Below, piece after piece: positions 584 to 64,000 of a stretch of DNA of 64,000 nt. The notes beneath the pieces are model-generated. The model saw only the letters and a list, made by a program, of their open reading frames with translations. It ran no database searches and was not told the DNA's origin. The stretch is taken from contig CM000155.2 of assembly GCA_000004695.1 (NCBI GenBank), positions 3,008,001 through 3,072,000 of the forward strand, given 5' to 3'. A program made the translations under genes and the position numbers. The stretch comes from Dictyostelium discoideum. Lineage: Eukaryota. Every line of letters begins with the position of its first letter. Positions within the stretch are counted from its first letter, which is position 1.

Positions 584-609
584 GATCTATTTTTTGTTTT
601 TGGTAAAAG

Positions 610-1630: not shown

Positions 1631-1636
<6 letters not shown>

Positions 1637-1711
1637 GGAACCAAGTTAATTAGAAAATTTCCAGATTTTTAACTTTTTAAAGAAAAATAAAAAAGATAGA
1701 AAGAAAATAAA

Positions 1712-3345: not shown

Positions 3346-3403
<58 letters not shown>

Positions 3404-3720: not shown

Positions 3721-3738
3721 AAAAATTATATGCTCTTA
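3721..3738. repeat. target-site duplication (right copy)
   Basis: It is identical to the 18-mer at 710-727. Confidence 0.8.
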
Positions 3739-3989
3739 TAGATGGGTTGCTCATACAGATGGGATAAAGCAAAATCTCCTCGGACATGTATAACCTGACC
3801 AATAAGTATCGCAACTAAAATCTCCGAAATGAGGGATTACAATACTATCATCGCGCGGGGGTTTTATTTATTATATTAATATATTTGTGGAAATCCATTA
3901 AAATATATTTCATATTAAATGTTTTAATCTATTAATAAATCATTAATGTTCAAAATTGGGCTTATTCTTAAATTTAATGGTCAGCATTA

Positions 3990-5110
3990 AATTGGGAATT
4001 TACTATAGATAAAAACAATTCTTTTTAAATTAGAGGAACTCTATTCTAAATCAATAAGTTTAAAATAGAGAATTCACCATAATATATAAAAACAGATATA
4101 TTTTGGTGTTTAGACTAGAAATTACGATATCAGTTTATTTTTTAGGTTCTCCATCTTATTATCAAATCGGTAATATTTGGATCAAGTCCTTTAATCCTCC
4201 ACCCTTTTTAAATAAAAAAAATAAAAAGTAATACCATTTTCAATATATAATAAAGAGATTTAAATTCTTTTTTTTTTTTATTTTATAAAAGTAATAATAT
4301 TAAATCCTTTTTTTTTTTTTTATTTTATTTTTTATTTTTTTTTTAAACAATTCTTTAAATTTTAAACTTTAACAATTATAATAAAGAATAAAAAAATAAA
4401 AAAATTTTAATTCCAATAAATTATTATGGATCACCATTTTTATTATTAAAACTTTAATTTTTTTTTTTTTTTTTTTTTTTTTTATTCCTTTTTTCTTAAA
4501 AAGGTTAATTTTTTCTTTTGTAGATTCAATTTTTTTTTTTTTTCCACAAATATTATTACCATTTCTATAAAATTATATACCATAAATTATTAATTTGACA
4601 ACCTCTATATAACTATTGAGTTATATTTTTTATTTATTTTTTTTTTTTTATACAGGATTATTTATTTATTATAAATATATTTTCAGAGTTACTCTAAAAT
4701 ATTATTTATTTTAGATATTTATGAATTTTAGAAATTTTCATAAATGGACTTTTTCATCCTCCGATTTATTGTTTTACTTTAAATTGGAGGATTAATCTTC
4801 CAATTTAGTTTTAATTGAATTGGAGGATTACTCCTCTTTTTTAACCTTTGGTTAAATTAGAGGAGCATTCTTTTATTTTAACAAAGTTAAATTAGAGGAA
4901 TACCACTTTTTTTTACCTTAGGTTGGATTAAGAGGATTGTTACAATCCTTTTTTTTTCAAACTATTGGTTAAATTAGAGTGAAACCACTCAAAATATTCC
5001 CTAAGGTTTATTAAATATTCCCAAGGTTTATTTTGGGTTCCCTCAAAGAGGGATTTACCTTCAAATTAGATCCTAATTTTGGTAAAAAAAAAGTCCGATA
5101 ATCCTCCCTT
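3990..5110. repeat. array of degenerate ~30-45-bp hairpin units (GGTTAAATTAGAGGA-like), each followed by an oligo-T run
   Basis: At least 8 units are present, with starts near 4027, 4770, 4815, 4847, 4877, 4920, 4967 and 5062. Each contains a short inverted repeat such as AGGATTGTTACAATCCT, GGAGGATTACTCCTC, GAGTGAAACCACTC or CCCTCAAAGAGGG, followed by T4-T10. Confidence 0.5.
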
Positions 5111-5334
5111 TTATTAATAATTTTAAAAAAAAAAAAAAAAATAATAAATAATACATATTTAAATAAATAATAAAAGAAATATTTCATAAAATTAAATAAA
5201 AATATTTACACATAATAAAAAAAAAAAAAAACCGTTGTTCAAATAAGAACATAAAATTATTACATTTTTCTAATTGTTTTTTTTTTTTTTAAAAAGCTTT
5301 TTTTATTTTATAAAATATCTAAAAATGAGTCAAT

Positions 5335-6141
5335 TTAGAATGATTTTAAGAAACCTTTTTGTTGGGCTAATCTGTTGAGAGCAGCATCGGATTGACCATT
5401 GTTACGGAGGAAACCGCAGAAAGCAAAGATGGTTTGTTCACCATTGTAGATACCTTCAGCATTGACGTGACCAATGTTAATTTGGACGGAAGCGTGATCC
5501 TTGGCGGTGATTAAACGGTTGGTGGCAGAGCTAAATAATTTAAATTATAAAATAAAAAAATTAATAATTTATTCTCTTTTTAAACCAATTTTTTTATTTT
5601 TTATTATTTTTATTTGACATAGTAACGATGTGTAATAGTAAAAGTAGTAGTGATAGTTTAATTATTATCAATATTTTTGTGTTGTATTTTTAGTTGAATT
5701 GTTATGAAAAAAAAAAATAAAAAAAATAAAAGAATTTTGTTTGTTTTTTTTTTTTTTTTTTTTTTTTTCTTCTAAACAAATTCTATAAAAAATTATCTAT
5801 AACCTAATTTTATATTTTTGATCAAATTTAAATAATATTCTCTGTTTCTTGTTTTAAATTTTCTTATTTATCATAATTATTATTATTATTATTTTTTTTT
5901 TATTATTTTTTTTTTTTTCTGTCTCTTTTTTTTTTTTTTTTTATTTTATTTTTTTTTTTACGATTTTTTTTTTATTTTTTTTTTTTAATAATAATAATAA
6001 ACCCTGCTTTTGAATCCAATATAACTACCACCATCACTACCATTCTACTGTACTCTTCATTTACTTGTATTTAAATAAATAAATAAATAAAAATACATAC
6101 CACTTACGTGGGGTGTAGAGTTCAACGTTCTTGGAGTCCAT
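5335..6141 (-). CDS. rps21: 40S ribosomal protein S21 (2 exons: 6101-6141, 5335-5530; 78 aa)
   Basis: The spliced product is [14 protein letters not shown]|[64 protein letters not shown]. It matches eukaryotic RPS21 (..[24 protein letters not shown]..). The donor is GTATGT and the acceptor is TTATTTAG. GC-rich codon usage suggests a highly expressed gene. The intron (5531-6100, 570 bp) is unusually long. Confidence 0.85.
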
Positions 6142-6536
6142 TTTATATGATATTGTTATAACTATGAAAGCAAAAAGAGAAAAAGAAAAATCAACAAAAA
6201 AAAAAAAAAATTTCTGTGAGGGTCGAGAAATTTTTTTTTTTTTTTGCAAAAAAAAAAAAAAATTATAAAAAAATTAAAAAAAATTGTTTTTTTTTTATAA
6301 AAAAAAATAAAACCGAATTTCGAAAATTGATCAAAAATTTTGTGTGTGACCAATCATTATTTTTTTTTATTTCTTTTTTATTTTTTTATTTTTTTTTCAT
6401 TTTTTTTTTAATTATTTAATTTTCTAAATAAATAAATAATTAATAAATAAAAAATATATGAAAATAAATAAATAAAATAAATCATTGATAGATCATTCAA
6501 AAAAAAATGGGCGATATTTAAAAGTGGTCTCGTACC

Positions 6537-6584
<48 letters not shown>

Positions 6585-6704
6585 AAAATAAAATAAAATA
6601 AAATTTTCTAAAAATAAAAAAAAAAAAAAAAAAAAAATAATAAAACAAAAAATTTAAGATTTAATCATTTACAAAAATTTCTTTTTTTTTTTTTTATTAT
6701 TTTT

Positions 6705-7924
6705 TTATTGATTATATTTTTTATAAACACTCATAAATTTGGCAATAAAAGCTTCTAAATGAAATATTGGCTTTGAACCAATTTGTGATCTGTGTTCCTG
6801 TTTTTTTATTTTTTTTTATTTTTTTAATAAATAAATAAAAAGTTAATAATTAATTATATAATTTTTTTTTTTTTTTAAAAAATAATATTTACATAATAAG
6901 ATGCCCAATGAATTATTTCAAATTTCATATTATGATCTAGTTTTTTAAAGATTTCTAATAATAAAGTTTTAAAGATTAATTCTGGAGGAATACAATGACC
7001 TAATAATTCGTAGAGTTTACCACGTACTATTGAAAGTCTTGCAGGTGATTGTTCCTCAAAGCAATCCTTAACGATTTGAGAGATGTAATTTTCCCAATCC
7101 AACAATGGTAATTCCGTAGATTGGAAAGGATATTGTTTTGCTTTCTGAGATTCCAATAACATAAGAGCGTAACGTAAATTGCCACCAGACTGTTTAGCGA
7201 CGTTTACAGCCAATTTCGAGGGCAAATCAAATTTTTCAGCGGTTGCCACTTTGGCAAGCACCTTTTCAATCTCCTCTTGCGAAGGTGCAGGCACCCTGAT
7301 ACCCAAACATCTCGACTTGATAGGGTCAATAACTTTGGCAGTCGAGTCGCAACATAAGATCAAACGACAGAATGTTGCATATTTCTCCATAGTTCTTCTG
7401 AGTGCATGTTGGGCGTCTTTCGATAGTTTGTCAACTTCATTTAAAATCACAATTTTAAAAGCGCCCAATGAGCCACTATCGATTGGTGGTGATTGTGCAA
7501 TCTCTTTAATAATGGTTTGAATTACAACACGATCATATGATCCTGCCTCACCTGGATTAATCTCTATATGATAATGACTACTAATCGTTGTAATCTGTAT
7601 ATTCTTACTACTTGTTGGATGTTTAAATGTTCTATGATCAATCTTTAATTTCAATGCATTTGGTCCATATATCTCTTGTAATACCGCTAAAATCCTTGTT
7701 TTTTTACCTGCTCCACTTGGACCATAAACTAATAAATGTGGAAAATCACCACTTTTAATCTGTAAATAAATAAAAATAAATAAATAAATAAATATATATA
7801 TATTTTTCGTTTTTTTTTTATTATTATTATTATTATTTACCATATTCTTTAAATTTATTGATATATCATTATGATAATCCATCTTATCTAATGATGTTGG
7901 TTTATATTTATCAATCCATAACAT
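6705..7924 (-). CDS. rfc3: replication factor C small subunit, RFC3-type (3 exons: 7841-7924, 6893-7759, 6705-6797; ~347 aa)
   Basis: The protein starts MLWIDKYKPTSLDKMDYHNDISINLKNM. After an 81-nt intron it continues IKSGDFPHLLVYGPSGAGKKTRIL, with ..DKLSKDAQHALRRTMEKY..CRLILCC..SRC.. further on. It is collinear with human RFC3 through the C-terminus (EHRSQIGSKPIFHLEAFIAKFMSVYKKYNQ). Recovering that C-terminus requires splicing out 6798-6892. The raw ORF reads through both introns. Confidence 0.85.
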
Positions 7925-7998
7925 TTTTATTTATTATATATATTTGTTTTTATTTTATTTATATATTATGTGTGTTTATGTAAAAATTAAAATGAAAA

Positions 7999-8029
<31 letters not shown>

Positions 8030-8351
8030 ATTTGAATTTAAGAAATTGGCGGGAGTTTCGAAATTTATCTTTTTTTTATTTTTTTATTTTTTTTTTTTTT
8101 TTTTTTTTTTTATTTTTCTTTTCTTTTTATTGATTCCATTATTTAAAGATTTAACTAATTATTTATTTTGATTTTATTTTATTTGTTTTTAGATTATTCT
8201 TTTCGGATCTAAAAAAATAAAAAAAGGTAAATATTCAATAAAAACTAAATTTTCCCAGAAATTTGAAAAAAAAAAACAATTTTCATTTTTTCAAAATTTT
8301 TTTTTTTTTTCTTTTATTGCTTTTTTTTAATTTTATTTTTTAAAATAAAAA

Positions 8352-8384
<33 letters not shown>

Positions 8385-8430
8385 TTCTAACATTCTTTAA
8401 AAATAATAAATAAATTAATAAATAAATAAA

Positions 8431-10565
8431 ATGGAAGAAGAAGAAATAATTGAACCAAAAGATTTTGAAAATGAAGAATCAGAAAATATCCAAATGGATG
8501 AAAATGAAAAACAGATACCAATTCAAACTACAAATGATCCACAAAAGTAATTTATTTAATTTTAATTTTAATTTTAATTTTAATACTAATATCTTAATTT
8601 TTTATATATAGTAAAAATATAATGAGAATTTTAGTTGCAACAGATAATCATTTAGGATATTTAGAAAGAGATCCAATTAGAGGTGATGATTCATTTAATT
8701 CATTTGAGGAGATATTAAAATATGCACATACATTAAAAGTTGATATGGTATTATTGGGTGGTGATTTATTTCATGATAATAAACCATCAAGATCATGTTT
8801 ATATCGTACAATGGAATTATTTAGAAAGTATTGTTTAGGTGATTCACCAGTTAGAATTCAATTTCTATCGGATCAATCTGTTAATTTTTCAAATCAATTT
8901 CATACAGTGAATTATGAAGATCCAAATTTTAATATTTCATTACCAATATTTTCAATCCACGGTAATCACGATGATCCAACTGGTGAGGGTGGTTTGGCAG
9001 CTTTAGATTTATTATCAGTTTCGAATCTAGTCAATTATTTCGGTAAAACTGAAGATATTGATGATATTACAGTCTACCCATTACTACTTGGTAAAGGTGA
9101 GACAAAAATAGCGATCTACGGGTTAGGTAATATTAGAGATGAGCGTTTGCATAGAACTTTTCAAAAGCAATCAGTGAAATTAATGAGACCGGTGGAATCA
9201 AAAGATGAATGGTTCAATATTTTAGTACTTCATCAAAATAGGGTAGCCCACAATCCAAAGAATTATGTTCACGAGAAGATGATAGAAAGTTTCATAGATT
9301 TCGTTCTATGGGGACACGAACATGAATGTTTAGTCAATCCACAGGCATCGTCAGTGGGAGAATTCCATATTTCACAACCTGGTTCTTCAGTAGCTACAGC
9401 TTTATCAGAGGGTGAATCAAAGGATAAATTTGTAGGATTGTTGGAGGTTTATAAAAATCAATTCCGTTTTAAACCATTCCCATTGAACACGGTTAGACCA
9501 TTCATTATGGATCAAATCATACTTGCAAATAGTAACATACATCCAACACAACAGAATGATGTAATTCAATGGATTGAGCAAAAAGTAGAATCAATGATTG
9601 AACAAGCCAAATTAAAATCTCAAGGTAAACCCAACGAATCAATGTTACCATTGATAAGATTAAAAGTTGATTATACTGGTTATAGTACTATCAATCCTCA
9701 AAAGTTTGGTCAAAGATTTCAAGGCCGTGTAGCAAATCCAAATGATGTTTTATTATTCCACAGAAAGAAACCAACCACTTTATCAAGTAAAAAACAAAAG
9801 GATGGTGGTGAATTGGATGTGAATTCAATCAAAGAAAAAGAAGAAGATAAAGTGAAAGTGGCCGATTTCATAAGTGAATTCTTGGGTAATACACCAAATG
9901 ATCGTTTACAAATTCTATCAGAGAATGATCTATTCAATAGTTTACATTCATTCGTTGAAAAGGATGAAACCGATTCAATATTGAAAATGGTTGATCTCTC
10001 TTTAAAATCGACTCAAAAATATTTAAATTCAAAAATCTCTTCAAAAGATGCTTACCCAGATTTCATTGCTAAATATATTGATGATAATTTCCCATTACCA
10101 CATCAAAATGTATCTTCGGTCAATTCAGATTTATTACCAATAAATAATCCAAATGAATTTGAATCAAATTTATTAGATGAAGATTCTCATGGTCATGAAC
10201 ATGGTCATAGTCATAATCATAGTCAAATGATTGATAATGATGATGATGAAAACATTTTAAATCAAAGAACAATTTTTAAATCACCACAATCAAATAAAAC
10301 AGCACCAACAACAACTACTACCACCACTACTACTACATCTTCACAAATTTCAACAAGAAGAAAATCTTCAACTCAATCTTCAACTCAATCTTCACAAACT
10401 TCAATTATAATAGATGATGATGATGATGATGATGAAATTAATGAAGATAATGATGATAATGATAAAGATTTTGAAAGTGATGAAGAGAAAACTCCACCAT
10501 CAAAGAAAAGAGGTAAAGTTAAACAAGTTGGTTCAGTTTCAAAAAGATCAAGATCAAAGAAATAA
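8431..10565 (+). CDS. mre11: double-strand-break repair nuclease Mre11 (main exon 8612-10565; putative 5' exon 8431-8546)
   Basis: The main exon starts MRILVATDNHLGYLERDPIRGDD..LLGGDLFHDNKPSR..SIHGNHDDPTG..GHEHE. These are the Mre11 phosphoesterase motifs I-V. An upstream in-frame ORF (MEEEEIIEPKDFENEESENIQMDENEKQIPIQTTNDPQ) ends at a GTAATT donor. It joins in frame to a TATATATAG acceptor 10 nt before the annotated ATG. The protein has an acidic/Ser-rich C-terminal tail. Confidence 0.85.
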
Positions 10566-10650
10566 ATTGTATTATAAATAATATATAAATAAATTTTTTT
10601 TTTATTTTTTTTTTTTTTATTTTTTTTATTTTTTTTTTTTATTTTATTTT

Positions 10651-10925
10651 TTAAATAGAATCCCAATCAGTTTTAATATTATTTAAACTTAATTTATCCA
10701 TACTAATAGTATAAGAATAATGATTTAAAAAATAATCAGTTTGAACACCAATTGAAGGTATACAAAGTGGTAAATTATCAGAAGCATCAGCGATAACCAA
10801 GAATAATAATTTTGTATATCTTGGATAACTTGAAATTATTTTACGTTGATTTCGATCAAAATGAACATGATCAACTTGATCATAAAATCTAACTATTAAT
10901 TTTGGTAATGATTGTGATGATGATA

Positions 10926-10994
<69 letters not shown>

Positions 10995-12648
10995 GTAAAG
11001 AAGATTTTGATTGTTTTTCTGAAATGAAGATTGTAAAATTATGAAATTTAAAATAAGTGTTAATTGGTAAATCTACTTGATTACTTTTTTTAGGTTGAAA
11101 AACAGATTGAGCTATTAGATAATGATTGAATTTATTATTTTCAAAATTTTTTTCATTGTAAATAAATAATTTATGAGAAGAGATTGGAATATTTGGTTTT
11201 TGTTTTAATGAGTTTACAATTTGATTATATTTCTTTTGTTGAAAAAATGAAAATTCATTACTAATAATACAGCTTAGTCTATGAAGTAAACGAGATTGAA
11301 TGGTTGGTGGTAAACTATTATAGTATTTCAAGGGTACTCTAATTAGGGGTAATCTCAAATCACGAATATTATTTTTATGTTCATTGAGTTCTAAAATGTC
11401 ATTTAACATCTTTTGTAAAACTTTATCAGTTTGATCTTTAATCATTCGGATTGGAGTTAAACCACTAAGGAATTGTTTTAAATTTATAGTTGTTGATAAT
11501 GGTGATTCAATTGAAAACTCTTTGAAATCTCTTAGTTGATGACGTGTTTTATTTCTACTATAGGATACTGGATCGTCGTTGGTTGGATCATTAAAATATT
11601 GAATTGATCTTTCTGAACAAAAATCCAGTATTTCCAATTTCGAGAAATCTAATAATGGTCTCACCAATAGCACAGAGTGGGTATTTGAAATTTTGGTTAT
11701 TTTAGTCATGGCTGCTAGTCCATCCAATCCACTGTTTTTATTAATTCTTTGTATAAATGTTTCCATTTGATCATTTAAATTTGTTCCATAAAATATTAAA
11801 TTATTACCATTTCCAACAGACTCACTCATTAGTATCTCAATTCTTTGATTACGTAATGACACTTGTTGTTTACATCTTTGTTCATCAATTTCAACTACTT
11901 TATGTTTAATTTTAATAAAGTTTGAATTATTATCATTGTTGATTAATTGATTGATGATTTTACTTATGTATGGTATATCCTCGGCTACAGGATTTGTCAT
12001 TTTATGATCGATTGTAATCACTGTGATTTTTAATTTTCTATTTACATTGGCTGAATTCTCTCCAATACACCAATTCTTTAATAAATATAATAATACCATA
12101 CTATCACTACCACCAGATACACCAATAACTAATGTTGATTTATTACTAATAGTTAATGTATTCATAAATTCTTGAAATTTAAATTCAATCATTTTAGAAT
12201 CAAAGAAAATATCTGGTCTTGCTTTTGCTTCACTTATTTTTTCACTGTAATCATTACTATTTTTATTACTACCATTATTTTTATTTCCAAATAAACCAGT
12301 ATTTACAATTTTATTTGTTACACTTAAACTCATTAATTTTTTAATTTCTTTTAATTTATTATATTGATTGATATCAACTGGTAATCCAATTGTAGTTTCT
12401 TTTATTTTTTCATTTTTGTCAATACTAAAATTATCATTATCATTATTATTTTTATTATTATTATCATTATCATTATTATTGTTATATATATGTGTTGTTT
12501 TATTATTATTTATACCACTATTATTATTGTTATTATTATTATCATCATTAATATTATAAGTTGGTGATTTTGATGTAGTTGTTGAATAGTATGACACATT
12601 TATTCTATTCGCTATGGTATATTTTGGTAATTTAATTAATTTATTCAT
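10651..12648 (-). CDS. tRNA(Ile)-lysidine synthetase (TilS, PP-loop ATPase), probably organellar
   Basis: The PP-loop LVIGVSGGSDSMVLLYLL matches the SGGxDS motif. NLNDQMETFIQRINKNSGLDGLAAM aligns with E. coli TilS [33 protein letters not shown] and NDPTNDDPVSYSRNKTR align with EDESNQDDSYDRNFLR. The basic, hydroxylated, acid-free N-terminus (MNKLIKLPKYTIANRINVSYYSTTTSKS) resembles a mitochondrial presequence. The protein also has poly-N and poly-S insertions. Confidence 0.8.
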
Positions 12649-53097: not shown

Positions 53098-54071
53098 TTA
53101 ACAAGTTTTTACTTCAAACTATAAATATAATAAAAAAAAAACAAATCAAAAAAAAAAAAAAAAAAAAAAAATAAAATAAAAATAAAAAAAAAAGGGTTAA
53201 TTAATTTTCTTGTTATAATAAATTTTTTTTTTGTTTTTTTTTTTTTTTAAAAAAAAAGCCAAATATACTTACAAGATTATGAGCCAATTCAAATATTTCC
53301 TTTTGTTTTAATTCAGAATTTGATTTAACTATAACTATAAATATATATTCTAAATCTTTTGTTGCTTTTAGATGAATAATATCATCAAAATCATTTTTTC
53401 CACAAAAATATTTATTTTCTACATCATTTTCATCAACTGAAAATGCTATATTATTAATGCTAAGTAATTGACCATCTATAAATGTTTGTTTATATAATTC
53501 CAATATTTGTTCTACCTCATCATCATTAATTAAAAATTGTTTTGACTGAAAGAATTTATTATCACCTATTAATATTTTAAAAAAAATGAAAAAATCAAAT
53601 ATAATTTAAAAATAAATAATTAATTAATTATTAAGTTAATAAATATAAATATAAATATAAATATAAATATAAATATAAATATAAATATAAATATAAATAT
53701 AAAAAAAAAAATAAAAATAAAAAAATAAAAATAAAAAATAAAAAAAAAAAAATAAAAAAAAAAAAAAAAAATGAAATCAAATAATTAAATAAATAAAAAA
53801 ATATAAAAAAATAAAAAAAAGTTAAATGATTTAAATAACAATGATGCATGCATGTGCGAATATATGTTTCTAAATTTTAAAAGGAGAGGGGGAATGACTG
53901 TTTAAAAGAATTAAGAATACAAAAAATAAATATAAAAATAAAAAAAAAAATTTGACAATAAACCAAAAACAAAAAATCAATAACCAACTACTAACCTTTA
54001 ATTACTAAAAAACATGGTATTTTCTCATTCATGTATTCGCATTTTTTTAATAAATTTTCATCTAATTCCAT
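53098..54071 (-). CDS. small conserved-fold protein, possibly roadblock/LC7-like or longin/sedlin-like (3 exons: 53996-54071, 53273-53565, 53098-53118; ~129 aa)
   Basis: The spliced protein reads MELDENLLKKCEYMNEKIPCFLVIK|GDNKFFQSKQFLINDDEVEQILELYKQTFIDGQLLSINNIAFSVDENDVENKYFCGKNDFDDIIHLKATKDLEYIFIVIVKSNSELKQKEIFELAHNL|FEVKTC. The pattern hIVVxxEGxPIKS...hFhIVIxNP resembles dynein light-chain roadblock. The exon 1/2 junction (GTTAGT donor, TAATAG acceptor) is in frame. The 7-codon terminal exon is uncertain. Confidence 0.45.
53639..53701. repeat. (AAATAT)n hexanucleotide repeat, ~10 units, in intron 1 of the preceding gene
   Basis: This is a perfect hexamer run. Confidence 0.9.
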
Positions 54072-55207
54072 TATTATTTTTTCTTTGTCTTGTTATTTGT
54101 CTATTTTAAAAAATGAAAAAAAAAAAAAAAAAAAAAAAAAATTGAAAATTTAAAAATTAAAAAAAAATGTGAAAATATAAAAAAAATAAATTCTTAAATT
54201 AAAAAGGGGTAAAAGTAATGATTCATTTTTTTTTTTTTTTTTTTTTTTTTTTTCAAAAAATTACTATAATTTTTTTTTTTTAGATAATACATTATTATAA
54301 ATATAAAATGACAATGAAAATTTTAGATTTATTTTTTTTATATTTATTATAAATTTTTTTTTTTTTTATTTTTTTTTTTTTTCTTACCAATTATTTTAAT
54401 TTTTTATTATAATAATTTTTTTTTTTTTTTTTTTTAAATTTTGGGACAAATTAATCAAAAAATTTAATTATTTACAATAAAGAAGAGGGTAATAAAGTGT
54501 TTTTATGATTAAAATTATAATTCTTTTGAGGAGTTCATTTTAAAATTATTAAAAATAGAATTTTATTATTTTTTTAATTTTTTATATTTTTTTTATTTTT
54601 AATAAATTGTTTATGTATATTGTGTATTTAATTAATTTGTAAAATTAATAAGATTTTTATAAATTTGATGGGTATTGGCTATTTTTGGGAATTTCTTCAA
54701 AACGAACAAAAAATATCTTTCTGTGTTTGGGGTTGTTGGTGGTTTTGGTGGTGTTGGTGGTTGTGGTAAGAGTGTGAGTGTGAGACGGTGTATGTATATC
54801 GAATCTCATGTCACCATTATGATCTAATTCCTTTCAAATATATTCACACATATATTTAAATATACACCAGCACAGAATTATACAGACAGAATTAATTATT
54901 TTTTATTTATTTTATTTGTATCACCATTTGATTAAATTTCAAAAATGTTTTAAAAATTTAAATTATTATTTTATTTATTTATTTTTGATACCACCACCTA
55001 TTATTATTATTATTATTATTATATTTTACCAAACTTGTTTTATTAATAGATACAATCAAATTACAAATGGATAAAAATTTTTTTTTTTTTTTTTTAAAAC
55101 ACAAGAATGTGGTTTTATGAGTGGTTTGTCTTTTTTTTGAATTAATTAATATTACTATTTATAGTTTATGGTTAAAAAAAAAGATATAAATTTAAATAAA
55201 AATAATT

Positions 55208-55239
<32 letters not shown>

Positions 55240-55339
55240 ATTAAATTTTTTGGTATTTAAAAGAAATATATAATTGTTTTATTATAATCAAATAATTTTA
55301 TAAAATATCAAAAGCAACAATAAAATCTACATTATAAAA

Positions 55340-55424
55340 ATGACAATATTAAGTATGTAAATAAAATATTTATATTTTTTCTTTTTTCATTTAAAATAAT
55401 ATTATTTTATATTAATTTAAATTA

Positions 55425-55457
<33 letters not shown>

Positions 55458-55668
55458 CCAAAAAACTATAGAATCGATTACTAGTTTTACATTTAATATT
55501 AAAAATAATAATAATAATAATAAAATAAATAATATAAATGTTAAAAATAATTTTTCAAATAATATAATATCAGAATCTTCAACATTGGTACATTTTAAAC
55601 TATGGAGAGGTGGTACATGGCTTGATATTGCAATGGATGATAGAGTTTCCATATATACACTTTGTTAA
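55340..55668 (+). CDS. candidate small two-exon gene (55340-55352 + 55472-55668; 69 aa), function unknown
   Basis: A mini first exon (ATGACAATATTAA) ends at a GTATGT donor. A 119-nt intron follows, with T24 and a CTATAG acceptor. The second exon encodes KSITSFTFNIKNNNNNNKINNINVKNNFSNNIISESSTLVHFKLWRGGTWLDIAMDDRVSIYTLC*. Its 3' half has clearly raised GC and coding-like composition. No homologue was recognised. Confidence 0.35.
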
Positions 55669-55825
55669 ATTTTTAATAATAATATTATTATATATATTTT
55701 TTTTGTATAATAACAAATTAATTTATTTATTATTCCAATCCTCCATCCAATTCCTTTATTTATTCAAAATTATAAAAAAAAAAAAAAAAAATAATAAAAT
55801 TCTATAAATAATTTAAAAAAATTAA

Positions 55826-56716
55826 TTAATTTATTTTTTGTTTTTTATTTGAAACAACTTTTTCTAAAACTTTTGAAGAGATATTTGAATTTAAAGAATC
55901 TTCATGAGAAGATCTTTGTTTAAAGGTACGAACAACCTTTTCTTTAATTGGTTTACCTTTTGATTCATGTTTTTGATTGACATGTTTTGAAAGTTCAACT
56001 TGTTCGAGAAGAATGAGATTTTGTTTACGAACTTGGTTAATCTCTAATCTCAATTTCTTATCACGTTCCATTCTTTGTGAGACTAATTTATCTTGTAAAT
56101 GATGCCATTTAAATTTTGGTAAATATCTAAGATTCCAAAGACAATCTTTATGAATATCTCTTGCTTTACCACCCATTGGTATATTGTTTAATATTGTTGC
56201 TATCTTTCTTGCTAATGCTTTATCTTCGAATTCAATCCATCCCTCTTTAAACATATCATTTCTGTGATTCTTTCTTTCAACATTTGCACGAACTAAATGC
56301 ATTCTAGTAACTTTACCATATTTAGCTAGTAGTTGTTTTAATTTTGCTGGTTTCATTCTTGATGGTATTGTTGATAAATAAATTATACCTTTATTTTCAT
56401 TTTGTTCTTTTAATTTCTTCATTTTTTCAATATCCATTGGTTTAATTTTAATCACTTTCTTAATTTTATTTTTATTATCTTTATTTTCTTCATCATCCTC
56501 ATCTTCATCATCTTCTTCTTGATTAAATTCTATATTGTCTTCATTATCTTCTTCTTCTTCTTCTTCTTCACCTTCATTTACATCATTAATAAAATCATCT
56601 TCGTCATCGTCTTTAAAATCATTTTCTTCTAAATCTTCGAATTTATTTACAAATCTTGGATCAATTTCCTCTTTTTTTGATGTTTCTATTTTATCATTTT
56701 TTCTTTTTTGTGCCAT
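55826..56716 (-). CDS. ESF2/ABT1 family pre-rRNA processing protein (296 aa)
   Basis: An acidic N-terminus (poly-E/D) is followed by the ABT1/Esf2 RRM-like core, GIIYLSTIPSRMKPAKLKQLLAKYGKVTRMHLV...FKEGWIEFEDKALARKIATILNNIPMGGKAR...CLWNLRYLPKFKWHHLQDKL. It is collinear with human ABT1 (GIVYLSRIPPHMKPAKLRQLLSQYGEV...[27 protein letters not shown]...DLWNLKYLHRFTWSHL). Confidence 0.8.
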   Translation of the reverse strand: MAQKRKNDKIETSKKEEIDPRFVNKFEDLEENDFKDDDEDDFINDVNEGEEEEEEEDNEDNIEFNQEEDDEDEDDEENKDNKNKIKKVIKIKPMDIEKMKKLKEQNENKGIIYLSTIPSRMKPAKLKQLLAKYGKVTRMHLVRANVERKNHRNDMFKEGWIEFEDKALARKIATILNNIPMGGKARDIHKDCLWNLRYLPKFKWHHLQDKLVSQRMERDKKLRLEINQVRKQNLILLEQVELSKHVNQKHESKGKPIKEKVVRTFKQRSSHEDSLNSNISSKVLEKVVSNKKQKIN

Positions 56717-56766
56717 TTTGTTTTAGATTTATAAAAATATTAAATTATGGAATAGTTAAAAAAATG

Positions 56767-56798
<32 letters not shown>

Positions 56799-57118
56799 AA
56801 TTTTATTTTTTTTTTTTTATTTTTTTTTTTTTAAAAAAACGAAAAACGAAACTTTTTAATGGATATTTTTTCTTTTTTTTTTCCCTTTTAAATTTTTTAT
56901 TAAAAAGATTTTAGTCTAAAATAACCTTTTTTGGAATAAAATAAAATAAATAAATTAAACCAAATGCTTCGGAATGTGAATATTGAAGGCCTACACTAAA
57001 TCCAACATGGATAGCTATCCAATATTCAAATTGTAAAGGAATGGTAATCTTTCTTAAGCCATCTTTGGGCTCTATTGGTGGAACTATCGGCTGTATCTAA
57101 ATTTTAAAAAACGAATTT

Positions 57119-57234
57119 TTTTTTTTTTTGAATTGGATAACGCAATTATTATTTGCTTCTCCTTGAGATGCTAGATCTCATTTTATTTTATTTTTTTTTT
57201 TTTTTACAGGGTCTCTAAAAGAGGGGTTGGTTTA

Positions 57235-57267
<33 letters not shown>

Positions 57268-57558
57268 TTTCGAATTTTGAATTGTATTATTACTTTTGAT
57301 TAAAACATCTTTTTTGTCCAAACTTTTTTCTAAATCTTTTTTTATTTTATCGTCTGGTTCGTGATTGATGTTTATGACGTATTTGAATTGTTTTTTTTTT
57401 AATTGAGTTTTATCCACAATTTCGCTTATTTTTTGTAGGCATTTGTGTTGCTTAATATTTGTGGTGTTGTTTGTGATTTTCATTTTATTTTCTTTCTATT
57501 TTTTTTATTTTTCTTTAAAAAGTTAAAAATCTGGAAATTTTCTGATTAACTTGGTTCC

Positions 57559-57600
<42 letters not shown>

Positions 57601-57862
57601 TCTTTTTTATATGAAAAATGAAATAATCAAAAAAAGAGATTGTTGTTGTTTGTTTTTTTTCGATCTGATTATTTTTTGCTTTTTTTTTGAAAATTTTGCT
57701 ACGCATAATTCTCAAAACGAAACAAATAATAAATTACAATAAAGTAAAAAGATGGCTTTTTTAAATAGTTTATTTATTTATTTATTTGTTTTTTAAGTCT
57801 TTTTTATATGAAAAATGAAATAATCAAAAAAAGAGATTGTTGTTTGTTTTTTTTCGATCTGG
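57119..57862 (-). mobile_element. TRE5-A mini-element (internally deleted: C-module + ORF1 5' fragment + B-module + ~1.3 A-modules)
   Basis: In reverse complement it has an A-module at 57590-57860, poly(A), a B-module, the first ~84 codons of ORF1 (57232-57483) and a C-module (57130-57190). It is bounded by TTAAAAAACGAATTT at 57104-57118 and 57863-57877. Confidence 0.75.
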
Positions 57863-57877
57863 TTAAAAAACGAATTT

Positions 57878-58054
57878 TTTTTTTTTTTTTGAATTGGATA
57901 ACGCAATTATTATTTGCTTCTCCTTGAGATGCTAGATCTTATTTGACTTTTTCGCTTATTTTTTGTAGGCATTTGTGTTGCTTAATATTTGTGGTGTTGT
58001 TTGTGATTTTCATTTTATTTTCTTTCTATCTTTTTTATTTTTCTGATTAACTTG

Positions 58055-58113
<59 letters not shown>

Positions 58114-59819
58114 TTATAGAAAGTACTGAGTGAATTATTGTATTTTTTGAGATGTTTAGGAAGTTCTATTGCGGGTGTTGATGATGATTTGTGACACCCC
58201 TTGTCCTGTTTTATCAATTGGTGCGTGGTGTGTTATTTTGTTTTTATATTGTTGATTTATTGAGTAAATTTTATTTGTTTTTATATTTGTTTCAGTTAGA
58301 AGTGCTGCGTCCAGCTTGTTGTTGTCTAAAACGGTGTTTATTATGCTGGCAGATTGGATGGTGTTGGATCCTTGGACGTTCCAAACACCTATTCTTATTG
58401 TGTTTTTCTTTATAGTTTTATTTGGGGTAGATTTTTATCTACCTTTTGAAGTTTCTGGTTTATTTTGTCTTCTAACTGATCTTTACTTTGTTCATTGTGT
58501 TGTTGGTCTTGTGTGTTTGTGGGGTTTTTTGATTTATTGATTTGTTTTAGAATTTCCTTGTTGAAGTTGTCTATATCTTCATCCATTTTTGTTTTTATGC
58601 TTTTTTGTCCATATTCACCCAATTTTGGTTTGACTGGTGTTTTGTTGGTCTTGTTTGTTTTGTCTTGTTGTTTCTTTTTTGGTGTGTTTAACAATTTACT
58701 TGGTGAATCGATAATTTTCGATGGTGTACCATAGGTTGGGCTGAAACTCATGATATGTTTTATTGGAGAGGAGAAGAACCATTGATTTGAAGGGATTGAA
58801 AGTGGGAATTCTATTTTTCTTATTGCATCAGTGTTTGGGCTGGTGAAGTCGAAGATATCATTTGCCTCTCTAAGTTTTTCTTCCGTTGTTAGTCCCTTTG
58901 TTTCGCCGTGTTGTTTTATTGGTGTATTGTATGGAGATGGTGGTTCGATAGGTTTTTCTGATTTTGTTTTAATTTCTTGATTGTTTATCGATTGTGTATT
59001 GATCTCATTCTCTATTCTTGTTAGTTCATCTACGTTTTCTAGTGATGCTTCTATTACCTTTTGAGCTGTATCATCTAGGGCCATAAATGTTTTATCATTA
59101 GATGAGGATGTGATTGGTGGGATAATGATTGTTCTTTTTCCTTGTTTTGGTATTTGTTCTGATGTAGATTGTGGTTGTTGTTCATCTGATTGTTTTTTAT
59201 ATTTGTTTTCTTCTTGATTTTCTGGTAATGAGGTTTGATCTCTCCATCCTTTGTTGGAGTGTCCAATTAATGTTAGATTGTCTAGTTCAATGATAGTGTC
59301 AAATTCTTCTACGACTCTTTTCACTGTTTTGATAATTAGAGTTTCGCCTTTAATTTCTAATTTAATTAGTTTACATCCTTCATTTTCTATTACCCATTCT
59401 ATTTCTGTGAGTGATTTATACCAATCAAAATCTGTATACATATTTTTTGGTCTTATAGTGGTTATAAATTGTCCTTTTAATTCTGCATCAAACATATTTA
59501 CAAAATAGATTACTGTACTAATACTGTCTGTGAGAATTTTGAATGTATTATTACTTTTGATTAAAACATCTTTTTTGTCCAAACTTTTTTCTAAATCTTT
59601 TTTTATTTTATCGTCTGGTTCGTGATTGATGTTTATGACGTATTTGAATTGTTTTTTTTTTAATTGAGTTTTATCCACAATTTCGCTTATTTTTTGTAGG
59701 CATTTGTGTTGCTTAATATTTGTGGTGTTGTTTGTGATTTTCATTTTATTTTCTTTCTATCTTTTTTATTTTTCTTTAAAAAGTTAAAAATCTGGAAATT
59801 TTCTAATTAACTTGGTTCC

Positions 59820-59870
<51 letters not shown>

Positions 59871-60537
59871 TCTTTTTTATATGAAAAATGAAATAATCAA
59901 AAAAAGAGATTGTTGTTGTTGTTTGTTTTTTTCGATCTGATTATTTTTTGCTTTTTTTTTGAAAATTTTGCTACGCAAAATTCTCAAAACGAAACAAATA
60001 ATAAATTACAATAAAGTAAAAAGATGGCTTTTTAAAATAGTTTATTTATTTATTTATTTGTTTTTTAAGTCTTTTTTATATGAAAAATGAAATAATCAAA
60101 AAAAGAGATTGTTGTTGTTGTTTGTTTTTTTCGATCTGATTATTTTTTGCTTTTTTTTTGAAAATTTTGCTACGCAAAATTCTCAAAACGAAACAAATAA
60201 TAAATTACAATAAAGTAAAAAGATGGCTTTTTAAAATAGTTTATTTATTTATTTATTTGTTTTTTAAGTCTTTTTTATATGAAAAATGAAATAATCAAAA
60301 AAAGAGATTGTTGTTGTTGTTTGTTTTTTTCGATCTGATTATTTTTTGCTTTTTTTTTGAAAATTTTGCTACGCAAAATTCTCAAAACGAAACAAATAAT
60401 AAATTACAATAAAGTAAAAAGATGGCTTTTTAAAATAGTTTATTTATTTATTTATTTGTTTTTTAAGTCTTTTTTATATGAAAAATGAAATAATCAAAAA
60501 AAGAGATTGTTGTTGTTGTTTGTTTTTTTCGATCTCG
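57878..60537 (-). mobile_element. TRE5-A (TRE5-A.2-like) retrotransposon, 5' end 45 bp upstream of tRNA-Tyr, head-to-head
   Basis: In reverse complement it has about 3.4 A-modules (59868-60537), a B-module, an intact ORF1 (58410-59744), the ORF2 5' remnant (~58110-58409), an internal poly(A), an ORF1 5' fragment and a C-module (57890-57950). It is bounded by the 15-mer TTAAAAAACGAATTT at 57863-57877 and 60538-60552. Confidence 0.85.
58410..59744 (-). CDS. TRE5-A ORF1 protein (444 aa), second copy
   Basis: It differs from the 1712-3046 copy at only two residues (S/L and N/Y). Confidence 0.85.
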   Translation of the reverse strand: MKITNNTTNIKQHKCLQKISEIVDKTQLKKKQFKYVININHEPDDKIKKDLEKSLDKKDVLIKSNNTFKILTDSISTVIYFVNMFDAELKGQFITTIRPKNMYTDFDWYKSLTEIEWVIENEGCKLIKLEIKGETLIIKTVKRVVEEFDTIIELDNLTLIGHSNKGWRDQTSLPENQEENKYKKQSDEQQPQSTSEQIPKQGKRTIIIPPITSSSNDKTFMALDDTAQKVIEASLENVDELTRIENEINTQSINNQEIKTKSEKPIEPPSPYNTPIKQHGETKGLTTEEKLREANDIFDFTSPNTDAIRKIEFPLSIPSNQWFFSSPIKHIMSFSPTYGTPSKIIDSPSKLLNTPKKKQQDKTNKTNKTPVKPKLGEYGQKSIKTKMDEDIDNFNKEILKQINKSKNPTNTQDQQHNEQSKDQLEDKINQKLQKVDKNLPQIKL

Positions 60538-60582
60538 TTAAAAAACGAATTTGTACCGATAATAAAATTTTATTTTCATCAA

Positions 60583-60665
60583 CCGGCTTTGGCGCAATGG
60601 TAGCGCGATTGACTGTAGTATTGAAAGTGATCAATCGGTTGCTAGTTCGAATCTGGCAAGCCGGA
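60583..60665 (+). tRNA. tRNA-Tyr (anticodon GUA) with an 11-nt intron
   Basis: The acceptor stem is CCGGCTT/AAGCCGG and the D-stem is GCGC/GCGC. The anticodon stem-loop is ATTGA-CTGTAG-[TATTGAAAGTG]-A-TCAAT. The intron sits after position 37, exactly as in other eukaryotic tRNA-Tyr genes (CTGTAG|intron|A). The T-arm is GCTAGTTCGAATCTGGC. The gene is followed by T4 and A8. Confidence 0.85.
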
Positions 60666-60693
60666 CTTTTAAAAAAAATAATTTTATAATCAC

Positions 60694-60707
60694 TGGTTCG
60701 ATTCTCC
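60694..60707 (+). promoter_or_regulatory. ex-B box downstream of tRNA-Tyr
   Basis: TGGTTCGATTCTCC lies 29 bp past the tRNA 3' end. Confidence 0.6.
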
Positions 60708-61397
60708 ATTAAAATATCCAAATTGAAGTTGTTTTAAATTATGTATTGATTAAACCCCTCCTAGGTTAAAGAATAAACAATACCCAATGAATTTGAAAAA
60801 CTACACTCTGAACTTAAAAAGGAATGACATTCATATAATTATTGATATTCATTTGAAATTATTTTATAATACTATTAAAAGTAATGGTGGAATTATTTGT
60901 TTTATTTATTAATTTTTTTTTCAAAAAATATAAAAGGAATATTTTTTATTTTTAATAAATACATTTGAGTTTAAAAACAAATATTTTTTATAAAAAAAAA
61001 AATTAATTTAGAAAAAATAAACAAATAAATATTAACATTTTTTAAAAATAAAAAGATAAATGTATAATTTTAGACAATCATTTGATGATAAATTAAATAA
61101 TGAAAAAATTAAGAGAAGAAATAAACTTCAAATACTAAAAACAATAAAATTAATTTAGAAAAATAATGATAATTGTTTATAAATAGTAATTTTGATTACA
61201 AGTTAATAAATTCGAATCAATCTCCTTTCGTTCTTTTAGGTCTGATTTACAACATTATTTTAATTTTTTTTTTTTTTTTTTTTCTTACAGAATAAATTTT
61301 TTTATAATATTGATTAATCACCGTTTATCCGTTAAAAGTAATTAATAGTTTTATTTTAGTATTTTCTTTAAATATTACTTTTTTATTACTCCAACAT

Positions 61398-61410
61398 GAC
61401 ATCGAACACT
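61398..61410 (-). promoter_or_regulatory. ex-B box downstream of the second tRNA-Glu
   Basis: AGTGTTCGATGTC, read on the minus strand, lies about 29 bp past the tRNA 3' end. Confidence 0.55.
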
Positions 61411-61438
61411 TGATCTCTGCCTTGGGTTTTAAAAAAAG

Positions 61439-61510
61439 CTCCCCATTCGGGAATCGAACCCGAGGTACCAGTGTGAAAGACTAGAGTGTTACCGACTACA
61501 CCAATGAGGA
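61439..61510 (-). tRNA. tRNA-Glu (anticodon UUC), second copy
   Basis: Its reverse complement is identical to the 45148-45219 gene and is flanked by poly(A/T). Confidence 0.9.
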
Positions 61511-61589
61511 ATATGATGAAATTATGTATTTTTTAGTAAAATTTATACAGGTATTTCGGCACATGTAATATCTAAAAATAAAATTAATA

Positions 61590-61670
61590 AAATGAGTCAT
61601 ATCTCAAGAAGAAGCAACTAAAAATTGCGTTATTCCATTCAAAAAATATACAAGTATTTTTCATTTCAAA
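61590..61670 (+). mobile_element. TRE5-family C-module-like remnant (diverged, ~80% identical to the TRE5-A C-module) 80-160 bp upstream of tRNA-Glu
   Basis: GAGTCATATCTCAAGAAGAAGCAACTAAAAATTGCGTTATTCCATTCAAAAAA aligns with the TRE5-A C-module GAGATCTAGCATCTCAAGGAGAAGCAAATAATAATTGCGTTATCCAATTCAAAAAA. No ORF or A-module accompanies it. Confidence 0.45.
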
Positions 61671-62193
61671 AATTTTTATACAAATAATGAGAAGGAAACT
61701 TGATATAAAGCACCACAAAAGGCATTTATATTAATTCAAAATCACAAAAAATCAGAGGTATTTCATTTTTAATATAAGATATAATTAGAAAAACTAAATC
61801 TATCAGATTGGTCAAAATTAATTTGTATTTAGAAATGGTCTAGTTACAACCTCCACTACTTCTATTACAAATTGAACCAATTTGTTTATAATCAAACAAA
61901 TATGATATTTTTTCAAGTACTCCCCTTTATAACAATTGTACTCATAAATCTTTCACTTTTGTATGTGGTAGGTTTGTTTGATAAATGTAGAATTTTATTT
62001 AATTAAAAAAATTAAATGAAAATTTTAATAAATATTAAAAAATTTTAATAATTTAATTAAGCTGCTTCTGTTGCCTTAACTGGGAACATAATAATTGAGT
62101 GAACATAAACTGGGCCACCTTTATTAACGATTGCCTAATTTTTAAAATTAAATTAGTAAAATAATAATAATAATAATAAATAATAAATAAAAA

Positions 62194-63545
62194 TTATAAT
62201 AATAATAATATTAAATAAAAAATTTTTAAATAATTAAAACTTACAAGTGAATAAACAGTTGAAACTGATAAATTAACGATTTTTGCCATTAAAGTTTTAG
62301 TTTTAAATTCATTAATTGCTGAACCAGTATCAACATTACATTGTGCCAATGAGACAGGACCACCCAAAATTTCAACACCATTTGCATTACGAACTGAAAT
62401 TAAACCTCCTTCAGTATTGGTATTTGAATAATGATATCGAATACCAAAATTATATTTAGTTTGTGTTGAATCTTTTAATTTGAATCTAAATCTTAATTTA
62501 CCACCAACATTGATACACATTGCATGAACAGTTGGTAAAACGAAATCACGAGCAAATGAACAATTCTCTCTATTGAAAAATTTTTGTGCATTAACAACAG
62601 TTGCAATATTATTATATAACCAATTATCATTGTAAATATTAATTGGTTGTAATCCAACTACCATTGCATCCAAAATACCAGATCTTTCAGAACCATCAAA
62701 TGTCATTGTTTCATAATTTGTATTTAGCCCTCTAAAAGTTGAAACTTTATGATTTGTAACTGATACATTTGTATCAATTCTCATTCCTAAGTCGCTATAA
62801 CCACCACGATCCATATCTTTAGCACTTTAAAATATTTAATTAAAAAATTAAAAAATTAAAATTAATTAAAATGATCATTAAATTTATAATTTTTTAAAAT
62901 ATACATACTAATGACATGACATATAATCCATTTCAGTATCATAAACTTCACCACCTGTGCAATTGGTTGGACCTAAATCAACTGTAACAGAAGAGAAATT
63001 TGATGAAATACCACTTGGGTATGAAATATATCTTGGTTGAACATCATACCCTCCAATAAAATTAGTAACAGTTGCATTTGAACTTGATGGTAATAAAATA
63101 ATACCACCTGACTTGTTTAAATTACCAACTTTTTCACCTACTCTTTCACCACTTGACTCTGATGGATCTAAAATAAATAAATAAATAAATAAAAAAGATT
63201 TATAATATTAATTAAAAAATGAAAACAACCAATAATGAGTATTTTAAATAGGAAAAAAAATATATATTACCATTATAAAAACTTTGAATTGCGTACATAA
63301 AATCATTTGAATGAGTGAATTCAACTCTTCTAAATTCTTTTTGGTATAAATCAAATTCTCTGTCAATGAAAATTTTTTCTAAAAAATCACATGATGGATA
63401 ATAATATGGTTTATTTGGTTTTGCTGTTTGACTTGGATCAATTGGTCTACCAATTACATCTGAAAAGCTTTAATAATATTATAAAATAATAAAATAAAAT
63501 AAAAATAAAAAAAAGTGTTTAGAAAAAGTTTCGAAAATAGAAAAA

Positions 63546-63608
<63 letters not shown>

Positions 63609-64000
63609 GAAACCCCTTAATTATTACTTACATATATCTAACATTTTCAGTATAACAGCCATTTGGATAAATAGTTTCATTAAAACCTGACCATAAATTT
63701 ACATAATCAAATACATAACGAGCACAAAAACTTCTAAATGTATTAAGTTTATTGAATTGCATTACACCATCAATACCTAATGCTTTAATTTTAGCAACAC
63801 CTTTATAATAGGCAAGTTTACAATGTTGAGCATATTCAACCATATTTTTATTAAACTCTTGTTCAAATGTTTCAATTTTACTTTCTGATATTCCCCATAT
63901 TTTTCCATTTGTTGAACCTTCCTTTAATAATAATAAATGAAGTGTAGCCTAATTTAAAAGAGGGAAAAAAAAATTAGTAAAAGATCATAAAAAAAAAAAT
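62194..64000 (-). CDS. partial multi-exon gene (≥4 exons; 5' end beyond the window) encoding a Cys-containing, probably secreted protein of unrecognised family
   Basis: Exon-like blocks lie at ~63628-63990, 63260-63470, 62900-63180 and 62194-62827. They are joined by GTATGT/GTAAGT donors and TAG/AAG acceptors with consistent phases; for example, ...MSCH(ta)|gtatgt...aag|(t)AKDMDRGGYSDLG. The encoded segments include YYYPSCDFLEKIF, GGYDVQPRYISYPSG and QPINIYNDNWLYNNIATVVNAQKFF. No confident homology was found. Confidence 0.5.

Follow-up and report, generated by a model that had tools for sequence, protein, structure and literature searches.

Tandems of the retrotransposon TRE5-A (formerly DRE) at tRNA genes that are already occupied by a copy have been described in Dictyostelium discoideum (Spaller et al. 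2017, PMC5391098; Barth et al. 2022, PMC9012585; Siol et al. 2011, PMC3159450). The locus considered here lies upstream of a tRNA-Tyr gene in a 64,000-nucleotide stretch of AT-rich D. discoideum DNA (assembly GCA_000004695.1, contig CM000155.2, positions 3,008,001 to 3,072,000 of the forward strand; hereafter the window, to which all coordinates refer unless another sequence is named), and carries two co-oriented TRE5-A elements bracketed by three exact copies of a single target sequence. TRE5-A is assembled from modules, namely a repeatable A-module of 200 bp, a B-module of 290 bp that contains the start of open reading frame 1 (ORF1), a C-module of 137 bp, and a poly(A) tail (PMC3159450). 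Among more than 1000 de novo integrations, 80% fell into a window of 47+/-3 bp upstream of tRNA genes (PMC5391098). The accompanying target-site duplications are variable, with lengths of 10-16 bp (PMC9012585), and untemplated nucleotides are often found at the 5' end of new copies, which the Winckler laboratory uses as the mark of independent integrations at one position (PMC5391098). Tagged TRE5-A was found at 91 of the 98 tRNA genes that were already occupied, so that tandems were formed (PMC5391098), and a new copy, with its duplication of 10-16 bp, comes to lie 'above' the resident TRE5-A.2 (PMC9012585). Repeated integration at exactly one nucleotide has thus been documented experimentally (PMC5391098, PMC9012585).

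The two elements of the tRNA-Tyr locus are designated el1, which is distal to the tRNA gene, and el2, which is proximal to it. Their features, with those of the flanking target copies, are as follows.

57104 to 57118, plus strand: target-site copy 1 (distal), an exact 15-mer that continues into the unique left flank (...GGCTGTATCTAAATT) and is followed by the poly(T) of el1
57119 to 57862, minus strand: el1, a TRE5-A mini element of 744 bp with the order A (1.5 units), poly(A), B, C, poly(A)
57119 to 57129, minus strand: poly(A) tail of el1, 11 A
57130 to 57266, minus strand: C-module of el1, complete, 137 bp including an A-run, equal to the published length (PMC3159450)
57267 to 57562, minus strand: B-module of el1, complete, 296 bp
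57595 to 57862, minus strand: A region of el1, 1.5 A-modules
57863 to 57877, plus strand: target-site copy 2 (middle), between the 5' end of el1 (plus GG) and the poly(A) tail of el2
57878 to 60537, minus strand: el2, a non-autonomous element of TRE5-A.2 type, 2660 bp, with 3.5 A-modules, 5' B-module, ORF1, ORF2 remnant, truncated 3' B-module, about 59 nt of C-module, and tail
58410 to 59744, minus strand: ORF1 of el2, intact, 444 aa, identical to AX4 DDB_G0293684 / XP_629018.1
59842 to 60537, minus strand: A-module promoter array of el2, 3 x 199 bp plus a partial unit, beginning at the canonical AGATCG 5' end
60538 to 60552, plus strand: target-site copy 3 (tRNA-proximal), which continues into the unique right flank (GTACCGATAATAAAA...) toward the tRNA
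60583 to 60665, plus strand: tRNA-Tyr(GTA) with an 11-nt intron, Rfam tRNA 57.8 bits, the RNA polymerase III (Pol III) gene directing integration

An exact search places TTAAAAAACGAATTT at these three positions on the plus strand, in agreement with the first-pass annotation, whose lengths for the bracketed elements (744 and 2660 bp) are also correct. No fourth match occurs in the window, even when 1 mismatch is allowed. Chance does not produce such a number, with a mean of 0.02 exact matches and none of 100 dinucleotide-preserving shuffles giving three; base composition alone predicts 0.0035 per strand in 64 kb. All three copies stand at complete element ends, and none lies within an A-module or any other module. 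A T-run follows copy 1 (11 T) and copy 2 (13 T) and in both cases leads into the reverse complement of the end of the C-module (GAATTGGATAACGCAAT..., read after the T-runs as GAATTGGATAACGCAATT...). Ahead of copies 2 and 3 stand ...TTTCGATCT, which is the A-module start in reverse complement, and 2 extra nucleotides, GG for copy 2 and CG for copy 3 as read on the plus strand. To the right, copy 3 runs into GTACCGATAATAAAATTTTATTTTCATCAA and then into the tRNA. In copies 1 and 2 the last TTT of the 15-mer cannot be told apart from the poly(T), and the length of the duplication is accordingly given as 12-15 bp. The left flank (56930-57103) contains no repeat found elsewhere in the window or in the other TRE5-A loci retrieved. 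Within 56720-57103 an older element was sought, yielding only low-complexity matches, and a TTAAAAAAACGAA-like motif at about 56835 was taken as a chance occurrence, being followed by no C-module-like sequence.

The middle junction consists of a full 3' end, a target copy, and a full 5' end, with no continuous internal junction, and the local target copy is all that separates the two elements. In the sense direction, the untemplated 5' nucleotides are CC in el1 and CG in el2, both placed before the canonical AGATCG start of the A-module, and the poly(A) tails comprise 11 A and 13 A. The internal structures are likewise distinct. El1 holds sequence absent from el2, namely the 5' part of the C-module, the full 3' B-module, and the undeleted B-C junction, while el2 holds ORF1 and an ORF2 remnant that el1 lacks, apart from an ORF1 stub of 83 codons. 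Compared with the A units of el2 and of a further copy in the window (728-3725), which are invariant, the A-modules of el1 differ by 2 substitutions and a shorter (CAA)n. El1 and el2 are therefore independent insertions, and neither is a deletion product of the other. Because the ends are complete and independent and the structures are mutually non-derivable, both a single rearranged element and unequal exchange are ruled out as sources of the tandem; the two findings that the first-pass annotation had named as fatal to its own proposal, a chance match of the middle 15-mer inside an A-module and a single element with a continuous junction, did not materialize.

The single-element explanation deserves to be spelled out, as the two elements are contiguous and co-oriented, and transcription from the A-modules of el2 could read into el1. 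A rearranged copy, or a read-through el2-X-el1 transcript (X being the target copy), might then have been inserted as one unit. Such an event would leave two flanking copies, and the internal match would be coincidental, at about 5e-8 per position, since an internal X imported from elsewhere is not expected to match the local duplication. The middle junction instead presents a C-module with a tail of 13-16 A, a target copy, untemplated CC, and a canonical 5' end, which leaves the composite with a negligible probability. Unequal exchange or replication slippage between the 15-bp copies of one X-el-X unit, followed by shrinkage of one copy, would give X-el-X-el-X with identical X, as observed, and would account for both elements beginning at the same A-module nucleotide. 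The first-pass annotation had kept this as a lesser option, which the structures of el1 and el2 contradict: el1 carries C and B sequence absent from el2, and el2 carries ORF sequence absent from el1, so an origin of either by deletion from the other is impossible. The two also differ at their junctions (CC in el1, CG in el2) and, through substitutions and the length of (CAA)n, in their A-modules, and stacks at other loci combine TRE5-A.1, TRE5-A.2, and different truncations. Moreover, homologous exchange is inefficient over as little as 15 bp. Duplication of a single insertion is thus very improbable.

The position relative to the tRNA gene is that expected of TRE5-A. The 5' end of el2 lies at -46, that is, 46 nt from +1 of tRNA-Tyr with 45 nt between them, in keeping with the 45-48 bp estimated at first pass and inside the 47+/-3 bp range upstream of a Pol III gene; copy 3 itself occupies 31-45 nt upstream of +1. 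If el2 and one target copy are removed, el1 comes to stand at the same distance of 46 nt. The sense strand of both elements is the minus strand, with the A-module ends toward tRNA-Tyr and the poly(A) ends away from it, so that, as annotated earlier, both 5' ends face the tRNA gene. This matches the published orientation (PMC5391098, PMC3159450), and the same orientation is seen at window position 728, beside tRNA-Asp, and in L009-L015, which belong to a set of further loci introduced below. The 12-15 bp duplication and the untemplated CC and CG also agree with the family's 10-16 bp duplications and untemplated 5' nucleotides.

The identity of the tRNA gene required some attention. ARAGORN in its default mode gave no name for the tRNA at 60583-60665, and with introns allowed it proposed Asn(GTT), which was rejected on the grounds that a non-canonical intron position is needed and that the C1-G72 pair and A73 fit Tyr. 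The intron TATTGAAAGTG, 11 nt long and placed at the canonical 37/38 position, gives the anticodon GTA, and the C1-G72 pair and A73, read from the sequence, constitute the eukaryotic tRNA-Tyr identity set. The earlier assignment to tRNA-Tyr is accepted on these features. An Rfam scan of 54000-64000 returned two tRNAs and nothing else.

Since the 47+/-3 bp window contains a single target copy, the tRNA-proximal one, el2 probably arrived second, an order that rests on this targeting logic and on analogy with other loci. Taken together, three target copies at one site, re-integration at the same nicks, and el2 as the younger copy make up a very probable reading, supported by the targeting window, the complete element ends, and the stacks found elsewhere, and in this respect the original proposal was upheld. 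The comparison of shared modules that had been suggested as a proxy for age was run and proved uninformative: BLAST reports 96% identity between el1 and el2, with about 5 mismatches in about 600 bp (<1% substitution), and most of the 4% difference lies in homopolymer and microsatellite ((CAA)n) length.

To place the locus among its relatives, nine further TRE5-A loci were retrieved through ORF1 identity and their element ends were mapped. Seven of these gave clear target copies.

L010, tRNA-Val: GATTAATCACCAAT, three copies, bracketing a TRE5-A.2 and a full TRE5-A.1, with a truncated copy beyond
L011, tRNA-Thr: GTTTTGTAATT, seven copies, at 1792-11421 of the locus, with six elements of 5653, 2536, 971, 155, 166, and 72 bp
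L015, tRNA-Gly: TATATATAATTTT, four copies
L014, tRNA-Ala: TACGTTA..., about four copies, with decay outward
L016, no tRNA found in the locus: CTTCTGTGAAAT, at least two copies, on the 3' side, bracketing a 521-bp A-BC mini element
L009, tRNA-His: TTTTATTTATTAT, two copies, a simple pair
L017, no tRNA found upstream: CTATTAGAAATAGG, two copies, a simple pair

The remaining two loci are less clear, with L012 (tRNA-Ser) showing two 3' ends, each followed by a similar target sequence, and L013 (tRNA-Val) showing two exact target copies and a possible partial third. The tandem architecture thus recurs in L010, L011, L014, L015, and L016, where distal members are truncated or decayed and where TRE5-A.1, TRE5-A.2, and variously truncated copies are mixed. 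Independent evidence on the order of insertion comes from L011, in which the two tRNA-proximal target copies have in common a derived extra T (AATTTAA versus AATTAA). The last element to insert duplicated a proximal target copy that had already mutated, which makes the proximal element the youngest.

Compared with the published TRE5-A tandems, the tRNA-Tyr locus is alike in its -46 position, orientation, modules (199, about 290, and 137 bp), TRE5-A.2 deletion of ORF2, duplications of 10-16 bp, and untemplated nucleotides, and in the placement of the new copy between the tRNA gene and a resident copy that remains undisrupted. Nothing essential differs, except that the tandem described here is natural and fixed and that both members are non-autonomous. 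No open-access text was found that spells out the threefold duplication in words, although such duplications are routine at the other loci. The phenomenon is already known and common, being the standard way in which TRE5-A accumulates, and the locus is an example of it rather than a new principle. The significance assigned at first pass was consequently too high, given that tandems and same-nucleotide re-use are published and that stacks are common elsewhere.

A second D. discoideum assembly, GCA_054883475.1, provides a check on the reference. One of its contigs runs from tRNA-Tyr through X, el2, and the middle X into el1, of which it holds 692 bp, and another joins the left flank through X to 198 bp of el1. 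All junctions are identical (tRNA-X-CG-el2-X-CC-el1, plus the left junction), with the middle target copy at 11842-11856 of sequence L008. Both contigs (L001 1-600; the 3' end of L002/L008) end inside el1, where they overlap by about 130 bp, so the break in this assembly falls in the 744-bp mini element, and a 7-kb A-module array that it also contains is left unbroken. A mis-join of two TRE5-A loci across repeats would be conceivable given that TRE5-A copies are near-identical, that the A-module count differs tenfold between the assemblies, and that both contigs of the second assembly end in el1. Nevertheless, every junction is reproduced, the contigs overlap within el1, and the 15-mer, unique to this locus in the window, is carried by all three copies, which renders an assembly artefact highly unlikely.

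Several points weigh against the interpretation as successive insertions, or narrow what it can claim. Over the unique right flank, 2640 of 2640 bases are identical between the assemblies; because of this identity GCA_054883475.1 is taken to be of the same strain lineage, and it excludes a mis-join particular to one assembly while carrying no population information. The size of el2 is uncertain, with 3.5 A-modules in one assembly and 36.5 in the other. The pre-insertion sequence is reconstructed rather than observed, no empty or single-occupancy allele having been found. Exact-protein look-ups of the gene at 55826-56716 and of the ORF at 62194-62814, which returned one other assembly (of the same lineage) and the short Logan contigs L003-L007, ending about 1.5 kb before tRNA-Tyr, included no such allele. 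Furthermore, the target copies are identical and both elements are less than 1% from family copies, so divergence dates neither event, and the overlap of TTT with poly(T) allows the first-strand nick to be placed only within 4 nt.

The mechanism that would account for the locus combines these observations with published models of TRE5-A retrotransposition. A first TRE5-A, either the mini element already or a TRE5-A.1 reduced later by recombination between its B-modules, would have been inserted about 46 bp upstream of tRNA-Tyr by target-primed reverse transcription, duplicating 12-15 bp (TTAAAAAACGAA(TTT)). The tRNA-proximal target copy would keep its distance from the tRNA gene bound by TFIIIB/TFIIIC. 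Because that distance was kept, a second element, a TRE5-A.2 mobilised in trans, could later have entered at the same two nick positions. At a distance of about 30 nt from the tRNA, the plus strand would receive the first-strand nick, at or within ...CGAATTT^G; there the T-run would pair with the poly(A) tail and prime cDNA synthesis. The second-strand nick would lie upstream of the first by another 12-15 nt, and for the later insertion this would be exactly the old boundary between element and target. Fill-in would duplicate the target again to give X-el1-X-el2-X-tRNA, with the older el1 displaced by 2.7 kb. The order and chemistry of the nicks are taken from the established model of target-primed reverse transcription, and targeting through an interaction of ORF1 with TFIIIB is likewise adopted from the literature, so both are presumed to apply here.

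The name TRE5-A is applied to both elements on the strength of the published description and of the identity of ORF1 to D. discoideum AX4 proteins. The modular organization is that of the family, with A units of 199 bp and, in el1, a B-module of 296 bp and a C-module of 137 bp, and both elements are colinear with the 5838-bp element of L010, which encodes ORF1 and a 1047-aa ORF2 with an RVT_1 domain.

In the sense direction, el1 comprises untemplated CC, 1.5 A-modules, an A-run, B, C, and poly(A). Everything between the two B-modules is missing, and the element keeps only the ORF1 stub of 83 codons and no ORF2, so it does not have the two intact ORFs (ORF1, and ORF2 with APE, RT, and zinc finger) that define TRE5-A.1. 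Its B-C portion is colinear with the 3' B-C end of the 5838-bp TRE5-A.1 of L010, with 2 mismatches and 3 gaps in 483 bp, and its B-module has the diagnostic bases of the 3' type (aatCag, acaAttc, ...aaAatag) and runs directly into an intact C-module. On account of this colinearity and of the diagnostic bases, el1 is identified from sequence comparison as an A-BC deletion derivative of TRE5-A.1 with the undeleted B-C junction of that type. An A-B-C structure would be the expected residue of recombination or template switching between the two 290-bp B-modules, in a manner resembling the formation of solo long terminal repeats (LTRs), in which el1 would correspond to what is left after recombination between the direct B repeats of AB-ORF1/ORF2-BC. 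The resemblance is limited by the fact that TRE5-A is a non-LTR element and that its B-modules are internal, not terminal.

Two routes to el1 can be considered, and the probability is evenly divided on the matter. A full-length TRE5-A.1 may have been reduced in situ by recombination between its B-modules, which are direct repeats of 290 bp with about 98-99% identity; the 3'-type B-module of el1, joined to an intact C-module, agrees with this, and the mini element of L016 (L016_e1, 521 bp), a second A-BC element with a different A part, fits recurrent formation. Alternatively, a ready-made mini element may have been retrotransposed, since mobilisation in trans should be open to a 744-bp RNA that carries an A promoter and a C-module, as it is to TRE5-A.2 and the tagged minimal elements (PMC3159450). 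The normal tail, duplication, and canonical 5' end of el1 are compatible with both, and the sequence does not discriminate between them. The shorter mini element, located at 10008-10528 of L016 and 521 bp long, has a design like that of el1 and stands within a stack.

The sense order of el2 is untemplated CG, three 199-bp A-modules plus a partial one, an A-run, the 5' B-module, and an intact ORF1, followed by about 300 nt of the 5' end of ORF2, an A-run, a truncated 3' B-module, about 59 nt of C-module, and a tail of 13 A (13-16 A). TRE5-A ORF1 has no resemblance to other ORF1 proteins (PMC5391098), and Pfam found no significant domain in ORF1 or in the ORF2 remnant of el2. TRE5-A.2 has been described as AB-ORF1-BC with a large ORF2 deletion and a 72-bp deletion at the B-C junction that spares the 3'-terminal 87 bp of C (PMC3159450). 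The breakpoints of the ORF2 deletion in el2 correspond to TRE5-A.1 positions 2159/5293 (reference: the 5838-bp element of L010) and are common to 4 TRE5-A.2 copies at other loci; the copy at 728-3725 of the window is colinear with el2 across the deletion, with 99.8% identity over 2587 bp, and the A units of el2 are all identical to units of that copy at 728-1614. Additionally, el2 has a private deletion of TRE5-A.1 positions 5544-5766, with the junction GCGAAAAAGTCAAATAAGATC, which engulfs the usual 72-bp B-C deletion and is present in both assemblies. At the 3' end of el2 (57893-57960), about 59 nt of the C-module are kept, versus the 87 nt reported for TRE5-A.2. By these comparisons el2 is best described as a TRE5-A.2 variant, with the shared ORF2 breakpoints but a larger B/C deletion; a literature search for 'TRE5-A.3' gave no result. 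If the B/C deletion of el2 predates its integration, a C-module of about 59 nt would suffice for retrotransposition.

The copy at 728-3725 is a third TRE5-A.2 in the window, on the plus strand, with 4.5 A-modules, and is located 48 bp upstream of tRNA-Asp (609-681, minus strand). It lacks about 7 nt at the 5' end and comes with a duplication of its own, ATTATATGCTCTTA.

The A array of el2 differs between the two assemblies, with 3.5 units in the window (59842-60537) versus 36.5 in GCA_054883475.1 (L008 2658-9918, 7.26 kb, 99% matches). Other loci of the second assembly have 2-22 A units. For a comparison of the A array at the 728-3725 locus, look-ups of the ORFs at 6875-7924 (minus strand) and 8622-10565 (plus strand) returned no record from the second assembly. 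The 3.5 units of the window reflect either assembly collapse or recent expansion. That el2 truly has an array of about 7.3 kb and 36.5 units, the window showing a collapse or a very recent tenfold change in one laboratory lineage, is a tentative proposal on which doubt outweighs confidence. If the long array were true, TRE5-A promoter monomers would amplify in situ after integration, by unequal exchange, reaching sizes beyond those found described in the TRE5-A literature, and such arrays could affect sense and antisense transcription beside tRNA genes. A-module arrays in the older reference may be under-represented.

Mouse L1 offers a parallel, having tandem promoter units of about 200 bp in variable number at the 5' end of a non-LTR element, although its monomers have no sequence relationship to the A-modules. 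Typical mouse L1 monomer arrays are much shorter than the 22-37 units of the second D. discoideum assembly. The yeast elements Ty3 and Ty1 are similar in that Pol III factors guide repeated insertion to a narrow window upstream of tRNA genes. They are, however, LTR elements that use an integrase and produce a 5-bp duplication, the Ty1 window is nucleosome-periodic and not a single nucleotide, and orderly stacks with one common duplication are not known to be typical of them.

In the neighbourhood of the tandem, the gene at 55826-56716 (minus strand) encodes an ESF2-like RRM protein of 296 aa (Pfam RRM_1; ESF2_C on record). It is intact and lies 388 bp from the distal target copy, and therefore illustrates how a stack can grow without touching a neighbouring gene. 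On the other side, upstream of tRNA-Glu (61439-61510, minus strand), a C-module-only TRE5 fragment of about 90 bp occupies 61558-61650 (within 61543-61665). It is 84% identical to the TRE5-A C-module, possibly representing TRE5-C or an old copy, and is flanked by an imperfect duplication, TATACA(G/A)GTATTT.

The precision with which TRE5-A gauges its distance from the Pol III complex is cleanly illustrated by the tRNA-Tyr locus, a natural example. The practical uses are modest: the order of a stack gives relative insertion dates, and exact re-use of both nicks through up to six insertions, as in L011, would make such stacks ordered records of insertion. For the biology of the family, the arrangement means that an occupied tRNA gene stays a target while older copies are pushed outward intact, so that multiplication is possible in a gene-dense haploid genome without hits to genes or loss of the element's own copies.

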